Positions 19,393 through 22,209 of a stretch of 50,631 bases of DNA are shown one piece after another (position 1 is the stretch's first letter; each line of letters begins with the position of its first letter). The position numbers and the translations under genes are program-made. The stretch covers positions 1-50,631 of the forward strand of contig ONSL01000002.1 in NCBI GenBank assembly GCA_900320505.1, given 5' to 3'. This DNA comes from an uncultured Eubacteriales bacterium (GTDB lineage: Bacteria; Bacillota_I; Bacilli_A; RF39; UBA660). A model generated the notes under the pieces. The model ran no database searches. It saw nothing but the letters and a program-made list of their open reading frames with translations, and was not told the origin of the DNA.

Positions 19393-22209
19393 TTACTTAA
19401 CAACTATATTAACGATTCTATCTTTAACATAAATCTTCTTAATAATCTCTTTATCTTTAGTAAATTTAATTACATTTTCTTCACTTAAAGCTTTTGAAAG
19501 AACAGACTCTTCGTCTTCATCTTTTGAAATACTAATAGTAGCACGTACCTTTCCATTTACTTGAACAGCAATATTTAAAGTACTATCAACCATTAATGAA
19601 GAATCATATTTTGGCCAATTGCTTTCACAGAAAGGTTTGCCAAGCCCGTACTTTTCATTTAATTCTTCTGTAATATGAGGAGCAAAAGGATTAAGAAGAA
19701 TAAGTAATAGTCTATAATCATCTTTAGAAATACTATCCATCTTTTCATAAGAATTTAACATAATCATAATTGCAGAAATAGCAGTATTGAATTTTAAATT
19801 ATTAATATCATCTTCTACTTTCTTAATAGTCTTATTAGCAAGAACTGGATCAGAATATTCTTTCTTATTAACATCAAGTCTTTCTGCAATACGCTCTACT
19901 CTTCCAATAAACTTATAACATCCTCTTAAAGCTTCAGTACTCCAAGGAGCATCTTGTTGATAATCTCCCATAAACATTTCATAAACACGAAGAGTATCAG
20001 CACCATAATCTTTAACAATATCATCAGGATTAATAACATTGCCTTTGCTCTTGCTCATCTTATTTCCATCAGGTCCTAAAATCATACCATGATTAACACG
20101 AGTCCATATCATTTCACTCTTTGGAACAAGACCTATATTATATAAGAATTGAACCCAGAATCTAGCATAAAGTAAATGTCTTGCAGTATGTTCATTACCA
20201 CCATCATAATAATCAACTCTATCCCAGTATTTCATATTATCCATACTAGCGAATTCTTTATTATTATGAGGATCCATATATCTTAAGAAATACCAAGAAG
20301 ATCCTGCCCATTGTGGCATAGTATCAGTCTCACGTCTAGCATCTGTTCCACATTTAGGGCATTTACAATTGACAAAGGAATCAATTTTAGCAAGTGGAGA
20401 CTCACCATTATCAGTAGGTTCATATTCATGAACATCAGGAAGAAGAACAGGAAGATCTTTATCAGGAACTGGAACCCAACCACAATGCTTGCAGTATATC
20501 ATAGGAATAGGTTCACCCCAGAATCTTTGTCTACCAAAAACCCAATCTCTCATCTTATAATTAAATTCTTTTTTACCAATCTTTTTATCCTCAAGATACT
20601 TAAGCATAGCATTTATTGCATCTTCTTTATTCATACCATTTAAGAAGTCAGAATTAATATGAATGCCATCACCTTCCATTGCAGAATCATTAAGTGCATA
20701 CTGGAAAGTTTTAGCATGAAGCTCATCTTTAACATCTTTTTCAATAGCATCAGAACTTACCCACTCTACGTTAAATTCTTCATCTGGATCTAACTTTTGA
20801 GATACCTTATGATCATCTTTTAATTTAAATAAGAAACCCGTACTTTCAATATTGAAATATTTATCCTTATTATAAGAATAATAATGATGATTAATCTTGA
20901 ATGTTTCTCTTACAAACTCTAAATTATCGTAACCAGTTTTTTCCTTTACTTCACGAAGAGCACAAGAAAGTGCGTCTTCTCCATCTTTTATAGAGCCACC
21001 AACAAATAATCTTCCAACATTTTTGCCCCAATTAATAGTTAGATATTTATTATTTTTTTCATCATAAACAATTGCAACAATAGAATTTTTAAAAGTTTCT
21101 CCATCATGTTTTTCACCTGTTTCTTCTTCAAGAACTTGAACAATAGGTAAATTAAACTTTTTAGCAAAATCATAATCACGTGAATCATGAGCAGGAACAG
21201 CCATAATAGCGCCAGTTCCATAATCAGTTAAAACATAATCAGATATATAAATAGGAATATCTTCACCAGTTACAGGATTAACAGCATAACTTCCAGTAAA
21301 TACACCAGTCTTATCCTTATTTAAATCTGTTCTTTCAAGTTCATTCTTTAAAGTGCATTCTTTCTTATACTTTTCAACTTCATCTTTATGTTCAGGAGTT
21401 GTTATTAAAGAAACAAGCTTATGTTCAGGAGCAAGAACACAATAAGTAACACCAAACAAAGTATCACATCTAGTTGTAAAAACATCAAAACTCTTATCAC
21501 TATCTTTAACTTTAAAAGTTATTCTAGCACCACTACTTTTACCTATCCAGTTAATTTGACCAAGTTTAATCTTGTCTTGAAAATTAGTATCTTTTAATCC
21601 ATCAAGAAGTGAATCAGCATAACTTGCCATCTTAAGCATCCACTGACTCTTCTCTCTCTGCTCTACTCTAGTGCCACATCTTTCACAAACACCACCTGCT
21701 GCATCCTCATTTGAAAGAACCATCTTACATTTAGGACACCAATTAACTTTTGTATTAGTCTTATATGCCATACCATGCTTATAAAACTGAATAAATTGCC
21801 ATTGTGTCCATTTATAATAATCAGGATCAGTTGTAGAAAAGCTTCTGCTCCAATCAAAACTAAATCCACATTCCTTCATTTGATTCTTAAAAGTTTCAAC
21901 ATTTTTCTTAACTACATCTTTAGGATGTTGATGAGTCTTTATAGCATACTGCTCTGCTGGTGCACCAAAAGCATCAAATCCCATTGGAAATAAAACATTA
22001 TATCCTTGCATTCTCATCATTCTAGCTCTAACATCTTCAGATGTATAGCTTCTAACGTGTCCAACATGAAGACCAGCTCCAGAAGGATAAGGAAATTCGA
22101 CTAAAAGATAAAAATGTTTTCTACTCTTATCAAAATCTTTAGCTTTAAAGCTTTCATGATCCTCCCAATATTTTTGCCATTTCTTTTCTATACTTGTATA
22201 ATTACTCAT
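19393..22209 (-). CDS. leuS: leucine--tRNA ligase with an inserted Nudix-like domain (938 aa)
   Basis: HIGH (HVGHVRSY), KMSKS, zinc knuckles, and the CP1 motif [19 protein letters not shown]. The start ATG overlaps the upstream stop (ATGA). Confidence 0.93.
   Translation of the reverse strand: [938 protein letters not shown]
20680..21129 (-). other. Nudix-like domain insertion within LeuS (aa ~361-510)
   Basis: [24 protein letters not shown] (nt 20929-20997) matches the Nudix box GX5EX7REUXEEXGU except that the second Glu of EE is Lys. About 150 aa sit where the LeuS sequences I recall have about 20. Confidence 0.6.

Follow-up and report, generated by a model that had tools for sequence, protein, structure and literature searches.

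The window analysed here is a stretch of 50,631 nucleotides (nt) comprising positions 1 to 50,631 of contig ONSL01000002.1 (assembly GCA_900320505.1), from an uncultured Eubacteriales bacterium placed by GTDB in RF39 (UBA660). At positions 19393-22209 of its minus strand, on which all of the window features described below are encoded, lies leuS, an open reading frame (ORF) of 938 amino acids (aa) whose product is a bacterial-type leucyl-tRNA synthetase (LeuRS) with a Nudix domain nested within it. The assignment to LeuRS is based on an equivalog-level match to the TIGR00396 model (leuS_bact; 928.5 bits against a cut-off of 548.4), which is split in two by the insert, on the LeuRS of Thermus thermophilus as the top sequence match in the PDB (2.3e-212), and on the presence of the HIGH and KMSKS motifs together with the editing residues of CP1. 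The HIGH motif (HVGH, aa 48-51; 22057-22068) and the KMSKS motif (aa 717-721; 20047-20061) are both invariant in an alignment of 40 relatives. The first part of the CP1 editing domain (aa 220-362; 21124-21552), recognised by PF13603, contains the Thr-rich motif TTRCDT (aa 245-250) and the editing Asp, D342 (21184-21186); residues T245, T246, R247, D249, T250 and D342 are likewise invariant in the alignment. Judged by these residues, both the synthetic site and the editing site of the enzyme are intact.

The extent of the insert was delimited by alignment with the solved T. thermophilus enzyme (PDB entry 1h3n). Residues 5-362 of the window protein correspond to residues 7-364 of T. thermophilus LeuRS and residues 509-712 to residues 375-579, and because these two blocks flank aa 363-508 (20686-21123), some 146 residues take the place of a 10-residue loop; in a Neisseria-type chain (7nty), the gap at the insertion point is ~20 residues. 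The initial annotation of this DNA, which was made from the sequence alone, had proposed a Nudix-like domain at 20680-21129 (aa 361-510) and had estimated that about 150 residues separate two landmark peptides (aa 331-360 and aa 515-532). The distance is 154 residues, and the comparison with reference LeuRS sequences bears out that the segment is an insert. The same annotation had taken aa 331-360 as the end of CP1 and had placed the module next to the editing domain, and in these two respects it requires correction. The PF13603 profile matches in two stretches, the first of which pairs window aa 220-371 with profile positions 2-150 of 185 and the second of which covers the post-insert part of CP1 (~aa 509-550, GIHINS...; 20560-20685), a segment that aligns with T. 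thermophilus residue 375 onward. Moreover, in the CP1 construct of Streptococcus pneumoniae (4k47; 192 residues), residues 2-138 align before the insertion point and the domain continues for ~54 residues after it. On these grounds the Nudix domain is nested inside CP1, some 40-50 residues of which lie downstream of the insert. The overall arrangement is therefore that of a Nudix domain (~140 residues) inside CP1, itself inside the Rossmann fold, with the point of entry 20 residues past the editing Asp. The G+C content of the insert is similar to that of the rest of leuS, and the mean identity with relatives is 63% for the insert and 70% for the rest of LeuRS.

The Nudix fold proper occupies aa 376-500 (20710-21084), as defined by PF00293, AlphaFold2 and Foldseek. 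With a cut-off of 21.1, the Pfam profile PF00293 scores 48.9 bits (E 8.5e-13) when run against the insert by itself and 44 bits when run against the whole protein. An AlphaFold2 model of the insert, built with 20 homologues, has a predicted local distance difference test (pLDDT) score of 92.3 and a predicted template modelling (pTM) score of 0.87, and the Nudix box falls on model helix 53-65. A Foldseek search of the PDB with this model yielded 443 matches at E<=0.001, and the best 50 of these 443 are all members of the Nudix family, each with a probability of 1.00. The top match is the MutT/nudix protein of Enterococcus faecalis (2azw; TM score 0.76-0.79), and other matches include Escherichia coli RppH (many entries; TM 0.67-0.70), an Ap4A (diadenosine tetraphosphate) hydrolase of Aquifex, and NudB. 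A profile score above the cut-off and the corresponding fold mark the insert as a genuine Nudix domain, housed in a genuine LeuRS, as the initial annotation had suggested. The Nudix box itself spans 23 residues (aa 405-427; 20929-20997) and conforms to the canonical GX5EX7REUXEEXGU pattern save for one position, again as originally read: the second Glu of the EE pair is replaced by Lys (K424, codon AAA), so that the complete box of active hydrolases is lacking in the window protein. In an AlphaFold2 model of the full-length enzyme, only CP1 and the Nudix domain (aa 225-550) are predicted with confidence (pLDDT 80-93, a range that also holds for the post-insert part of CP1; pTM of the whole 0.48), and the catalytic core is modelled poorly because the alignment was shallow.

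The distribution of this architecture was assessed by several searches. A whole-protein search retrieved at least 120 clusters, 935-940 aa in length except for one of 1103 aa, which are 67-75% identical to the window protein and all contain PF00293. In a genome scan, in which a profile of the insert was compared with one genome per GTDB species, at least 600 stretches were matched and at least 495 relatives were confirmed by tblastn; the species-level loci inspected are the best 80 of these confirmed relatives. All 80 derive from metagenome-assembled genomes (MAGs) labelled as uncultured gut Bacilli, 'Tenericutes' or Mycoplasmatota-type, obtained from rabbit, human, mouse, ruminant and chicken sources, with a few names that are evidently mis-binned. 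The canonical EE box is found in all 80, mostly within open frames of ~940 aa, and in 119 of the 120 relatives from the protein search. The exact protein of the window occurs in 5 contigs with the same in-frame architecture. A second genome scan, in which the pattern was a LeuRS flank motif, samples the carriers among Patescibacteria and gives no count of them; it revealed a Nudix domain at the same site in many such genomes, among them Saccharibacteria, Paceibacterota/Parcubacteria, Magasanikbacteria, Taylorbacteria and others, in ORFs of 936-1305 aa with mostly canonical boxes. In a set of 17 diverse LeuRS sequences, mostly of Patescibacteria type, the box is canonical in 16, and the Glu residues of its REUXEE core are kept in all 17; in the remaining sequence the first Glu of the box is replaced by Gln and the Arg by Met. 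The architecture is thus common, being present in hundreds of species of gut Bacilli and in many Patescibacteria. An impression of rarity, given by a word-index search with the insert alone (7 fragments), was overturned by the whole-protein search, the genome scan and an exhaustive profile search described below. Related LeuRS proteins thus do carry the insert, in at least 120 clusters, and the domain cannot be regarded as rare.

Without the insert, the LeuRS backbone is ~46-54% identical both to Nudix-free LeuRS of Bacillota and to Nudix-bearing LeuRS of Patescibacteria, identities that are compatible with a single ancient insertion followed by transfer as well as with repeated insertion at the same loop. 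The insert has probably also disturbed automatic naming in one relative: HIS11829.1 (P0037), of Candidatus Onthocola stercoravium, is a full-length LeuRS that scores at equivalog level, and its NCBI name is only 'class I tRNA ligase family protein'.

Two unusual loci were encountered in these searches. The 1103-aa relative (P0030) has, at the insertion site of the window protein, a tandem of two Nudix domains that differ from each other, and its GAM..DG.HINS junction is repeated; it may have arisen by genuine duplication or recombination, or its 6-kb contig may be chimeric. In a MAG labelled Paceibacterota (L076, 2706-3419), an ORF for a CP1 fragment is followed by a 148-aa ORF that consists of the CP1 end plus Nudix, with a canonical box; there is no full LeuRS around these fragments, and the locus looks like a pseudogene or a stand-alone remnant.

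Such cases raise the question of whether the architecture could be an artefact or a mobile element, the product of chimerism in assembly, of an erroneous ORF call or of an intein-like spliced element. The possible chimera in P0030 and the broken CP1 and Nudix fragments of L076 would be in keeping with this explanation, but the same in-frame arrangement is found in the 5 contigs that encode this very protein, in independently assembled sequences of at least 120 clusters and in all 80 genomes inspected, and the insert resembles its host in G+C content and conservation. A Pfam scan of the insert (E<=1) produced NUDIX and a sub-threshold chance match to XAP5 only, with no intein family. An artefactual or mobile origin is accordingly extremely improbable, and assembly chimerism and inteins in particular are ruled out by the hundreds of independent assemblies and the Nudix-only Pfam scan.

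The genes and signals upstream of leuS place the enzyme in a conserved context. A T-box leader (22613-22789; Rfam RF00230, 96.9 bits compared to a gathering threshold of 93), without the K-turn segment of the Rfam model, precedes a small ORF and leuS, and is accompanied by a promoter-like site and a terminator-like stem. A T-box occurs at the same place in eight related species, where the specifier is GAA-CUU, i.e., a Leu codon; such a T-box in the relatives is the regulation that would be expected of a housekeeping leuS. In the window, the triplet aligned with the specifier is CCC (Pro), and CUU is found 6 nt further on (GAACCCAAACUUG). The T-box of a second contig of the same species (L160) has a score identical to that of the window. 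Between the T-box and leuS, at 22206-22595, lies a small ORF of 129 aa, basic, hydrophobic and membrane-like, which shares 4 nt with the start of leuS. The Pfam records contain no hit for this ORF, and a homologous small ORF is found at the same place in most of the related loci. As read from these comparisons, the T-box, the small ORF and the Nudix-containing leuS form a conserved unit, and the leuS of the window encodes the housekeeping LeuRS, under tRNA-Leu regulation, of an uncultured member of the gut Bacilli.

The Nudix box is not the only part of the insert that is conserved. Residues R400, H441, H442, K448, D476, E477 and W483 are invariant in the family; Y443 is invariant in the 40-sequence alignment and present in 119 of 120 sequences of the larger set, and Y444 is 98% conserved. 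A polyphosphate substrate would be in keeping with the invariant residues beyond the box, and the invariance of both the box and these further residues throughout the family is what one would expect if the enzyme works. The Nudix domain of the family is therefore very probably an active hydrolase. The alternative is that the domain is a non-catalytic appendage of CP1 with a structural, regulatory or nucleotide-sensing role, tuning editing or aminoacylation with no hydrolysis. Non-enzymatic Nudix proteins do exist (PMC5389931), the EK box of the window is tolerated by its species, and degenerate boxes occur in a few distant relatives (the one among the 17 diverse LeuRS sequences, and some representatives in which a regular expression for the box finds no match). 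A pure binding module, however, would not need the Glu residues of REUXEE, which are kept in 119 of 120 relatives, all 80 of the best loci and all 17 diverse sequences. A non-catalytic role thus appears unlikely for the family, and is plausible for the strain studied here.

The substitution that sets the window protein apart lies at 20938-20940, where the codon AAA (K424) replaces the second Glu of REUXEE through one G-to-A change. Glu occupies position 424 in 119 of the 120 relatives, in all of the 80 best species loci and in each of the 17 diverse LeuRS sequences. Within the 90% cluster to which the window protein belongs, K424 is found in eight of nine full-length variants, and the ninth (P0132) combines E424 with the consensus residues of the family, G398, A445 and E492. 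The K424 alleles also carry G398V, A445S or E492D, changes at Nudix positions that are otherwise near-invariant. The contig that encodes P0132 (the L160 mentioned above; leuS at 3001-5817) is syntenic with the window, and the two leuS genes are 99.1% identical in DNA; they differ by 11 non-synonymous changes, of which 6 are in the insert, and by 13 synonymous changes, of which 3 are in the insert. In the species cluster as a whole, the 153 residues of the insert include 7 variable ones, as many as the 785 residues elsewhere, which corresponds to a density ratio of 5.1 (p=0.004); the ratio in two control species clusters is 2.1 and 1.0. The notion that the EK box is a family trait was considered and is ruled out by the EE pair of 119 of 120 relatives, of 80 of the 80 best loci and of P0132 from the same species.

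The likely effect of the change can be gauged from yeast Dcp2, in which the residue aligned with K424 is E153 (the PDB entry 4kg3 has Gln there). E153 is described as the general base of Dcp2, and the E153Q mutation 'essentially eliminates' decapping, in vitro as well as in vivo (PMC6300357). Because the change from Glu to Lys affects a residue whose Dcp2 equivalent is essential, the window copy is probably a poor or dead hydrolase, and we consider it likely that the Nudix domain of this strain is impaired. K424 is a recent, species-specific substitution, and we infer that the hydrolase has recently been inactivated or weakened, with a relaxation of constraint. The extra variation of the K424 lineage is confined to the Nudix domain, which would favour loss of function over a stable non-catalytic state. 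LeuRS function has probably been kept in this strain even if its hydrolase is weak or dead.

The closest characterised relatives of the domain were sought with sequence profiles and structure comparisons. In a profile search of PDB sequences, the catalytic domains of Dcp2, the eukaryotic mRNA-decapping enzyme, come first (E 1e-8, ~120 aligned residues), followed by uncharacterised bacterial Nudix proteins, NudB and the decapping enzyme of African swine fever virus (ASFV), and Ap4A hydrolases are marginal (E 0.004-0.9). The NCBIfam models that respond to the insert, all below threshold, are NudB, RppH (23 bits) and YtkD, and for ten free-standing relatives of the domain the RppH models come first, with 20-42 bits, again all sub-threshold. 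From these matches, the domain most resembles the group of RppH, Dcp2 and the diadenosine polyphosphate (ApnA) hydrolases.

Each of these enzymes shares some features with the insert and differs in others. RppH (E. coli NudH/YgdP), an RNA 5' pyrophosphohydrolase and Ap4A/Ap5A hydrolase, is likewise a small Nudix enzyme with a canonical box in its family and, as stated above, a TM score of 0.67-0.70 to the insert, and one of its structures (7sp3) has Ap4A bound; it is free-standing, unlike the LeuRS-nested domain, and the insert scores far under the RppH cut-offs. Dcp2 is the top sequence match among solved structures and shares the box context CxIRExKEExG, but the match is limited to the Nudix domain. 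The N-terminal regulatory domain and the Box B helix that flank the Nudix domain of Dcp2 are not found in the insert, whose flanks are the CP1 of LeuRS, and the host here is bacterial, with the domain nested in a synthetase. The Nudix Ap4A hydrolases are similar in fold (Aquifex aq_158, 3i7u, TM 0.71 and root-mean-square deviation 2.7; human NUDT2, 4ijx, TM 0.64), and their sequence matches to the insert are marginal. A Tyr downstream of the box, in the X-loop, where it contacts the adenine, has been proposed as a marker of ApnA hydrolases (PMC5389931). Conserved Tyr residues are found 16-17 residues past the box in the insert family, and no alignment joins them to NUDT2 Y87 or RppH Y77. We take the spacing of Y443/Y444 to be that of RppH Y77, a position read from the sequence and not from an alignment.

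Fusions of a related kind are known. The curated model NF040702 (ileS_w_GNAT) provides a precedent in the form of a bacterial class Ia synthetase, isoleucyl-tRNA synthetase (IleRS), with an extra enzyme domain, an N-acetyltransferase; both the synthetase and the passenger domain are different. In NCBIfam 20.0, no curated model of LeuRS with Nudix is present among the best 25 of the 32 models listed for the window protein. In NadM-Nudix (NF003790, NMN adenylyltransferase/ADP-ribose pyrophosphatase), an enzyme that uses ATP and forms adenylates is covalently linked to a Nudix domain; this is a terminal fusion of NAD metabolism, in contrast to the internal nesting within a translation enzyme, and its model gives 14-19 bits only.

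An exhaustive profile search of 1.84 billion representatives identified 905 proteins at E<=0.001, of which 164 were at E<=1e-10. LeuRS proteins or LeuRS fragments account for 96 of the best 150 representatives. The Nudix domain is found at three sites in these LeuRS proteins: the site of the window protein (site A, after window aa 360), which is the only one used in 77 representatives; site B, before CP1 and after ~aa 205-245, at times with two tandem copies; and site C, after ~aa 616. One to three copies are present per LeuRS, and multiple copies were confirmed by Pfam (e.g., P0169, P0170 and P0197). LeuRS proteins with several Nudix domains, at up to three sites, were noted in other lineages (P0169, P0170, P0180, P0184, P0186, P0193, P0197 and P0245). 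The domain is also combined with other partners: a LeuRS with both Nudix and Ham1 of the ITPase family (P0279), an IleRS-like protein with Nudix and a histidine phosphatase (P0215), an RNase PH with Nudix between its two domains (P0248), and a GNAT-Nudix-GNAT-M17 peptidase protein (P0228).

Free-standing relatives were examined in seven genomic contexts, a small sample of which six were informative. In three of these six, a class I synthetase gene is located directly downstream of the Nudix gene (1-40 nt). One (P0181; L161, 711-1175) is encoded 4 nt upstream of a gene for a protein similar to valyl-tRNA synthetase (ValRS) and downstream of tsaD; another (P0202; L163, 40-552) lies 40 nt upstream of a class I C-terminal fragment, in two contigs; and the third (P0238, on a JGI contig) lies 1 nt upstream of a gene for a LeuRS that itself contains Nudix. 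Of the other three, P0230 is encoded 4 nt after fpg, and for P0198 and P0207 no synthetase gene was found nearby.

These associations bear on the main rival to a functional link with the synthetase, according to which the Nudix domain is a passenger, a house-cleaning enzyme such as a MutT-like hydrolase of oxidised NTPs or NDPs, with no connection to leucylation, editing or tRNA. In organisms with small genomes, a large and essential protein would house it in a tolerant loop at its surface, for the sake of co-expression or stability. In its favour, the loop is of variable length among solved LeuRS structures (10 to ~20 residues), the carriers are MAGs of uncultured gut Bacilli and Patescibacteria, lineages with small genomes, and the domain keeps company with Ham1, a histidine phosphatase and the GNAT and M17 peptidase modules, as well as with fpg, a context of the GO-repair type. 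Chance lodging, however, would hardly explain the preference for hosts, since LeuRS makes up 96 of the best 150 representatives, half of the six informative free-standing relatives are encoded right beside a class I synthetase gene, and the other hosts, RNase PH and the IleRS-like protein, belong to the tRNA enzymes as well. The coupling between Nudix and synthetase looks specific because free-standing relatives precede class I synthetase genes and because IleRS-like and RNase PH proteins serve as hosts, which argues that the link is not random. We consider the passenger explanation rather doubtful.

Overall, our preferred explanation, which we hold by a modest degree of confidence, is that of an active module of the RppH, Dcp2 or ApnA-hydrolase type that is tied to tRNA enzymes and has probably been inactivated in this strain. 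The module would be a Mg-dependent pyrophosphohydrolase acting on a nucleotide linked through a polyphosphate, and LeuRS would tether it to the machinery that handles tRNA. Its target might be a free dinucleoside polyphosphate, e.g., Ap4A made by the synthetase, or alternatively a triphosphate or Np4-type cap at an RNA 5' end; that the substrate is indeed either a dinucleoside polyphosphate (NpnN) or an RNA 5' end with a polyphosphate or a cap is in our estimate an evenly balanced proposition. A stricter version, in which a mechanistic coupling ties the Nudix domain to tRNA and the class Ia synthetases, so that it either destroys Np4N made at the LeuRS active site or strips a polyphosphate or Np4-type cap from the 5' end of bound tRNA or RNA, can be put forward only tentatively.

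Several observations weigh against the explanation that we prefer. No model of a characterised Nudix subfamily reaches its cut-off (for RppH, 20-42 bits compared to at least 116, the PRK00714 models requiring 116-259), so that the substrate class proposed here is provisional; when the profile was compared by hhalign with that of E. coli RppH, only 29 residues around the box were aligned. The other LeuRS and IleRS-like proteins that contain Ham1 or a histidine phosphatase, together with the free-standing relative next to fpg, would fit a general role in cleaning the nucleotide pool that has no mechanistic tie to LeuRS. Beyond CP1 and Nudix, the full-length model, at the pTM of 0.48 given above, is too poor to place the Nudix site relative to the editing site, the synthetic site and tRNA. 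As to the inactivation of the window copy, some Nudix enzymes with imperfect boxes are active, and the signal of relaxed constraint is built on 14 variable sites only.

The initial annotation had further suggested that the fused module might clear Ap4A-type side products. Aminoacyl-tRNA synthetases are a known source of Ap4A, which they form as a side product, and the idea is reasonable because the nearest characterised relatives include enzymes that hydrolyse Ap4A or Ap5A, notably RppH (with Ap4A in 7sp3) and the Aquifex Ap4A hydrolase. Nothing in the present results, however, singles out Ap4A: the best sequence matches are to enzymes of RNA 5' ends (Dcp2 and RppH), the same Nudix family is also fused to RNase PH and to an IleRS-like protein, and Ham1 is found in LeuRS of other lineages as well. 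The initial annotation was aware of no description of the architecture, and this is supported. No paper on a Nudix domain within LeuRS was found, in a search that left subscription journals mostly outside its coverage, such that this absence is no proof. The architecture is common, and Pfam hits for these proteins had already been precomputed. The parts are thus known, and their combination is apparently undescribed.

Aminoacyl-tRNA synthetases are among the best-studied enzymes, and to our knowledge extra catalytic domains are rare in those of bacteria. The present analysis reveals a conserved pyrophosphohydrolase module, with the residues required for catalysis in the family at large, within the editing domain of LeuRS in hundreds of gut species and in many Patescibacteria. 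It suggests a previously unrecognised link, in bacteria with small genomes, between the charging of tRNA and the metabolism of nucleotides or RNA 5' ends, whether through Ap4A-type alarmones, RNA caps or cleaning of the nucleotide pool. The K424 and E424 strains of a single species constitute a ready-made mutant pair for this system. If the Nudix domain is indeed coupled to the synthetase, these proteins would form an unrecognised class of bifunctional synthetases, with one to three Nudix copies at three sites, which would be widespread in Patescibacteria and uncultured gut Bacilli, and the strain described here would be a natural loss-of-function variant.

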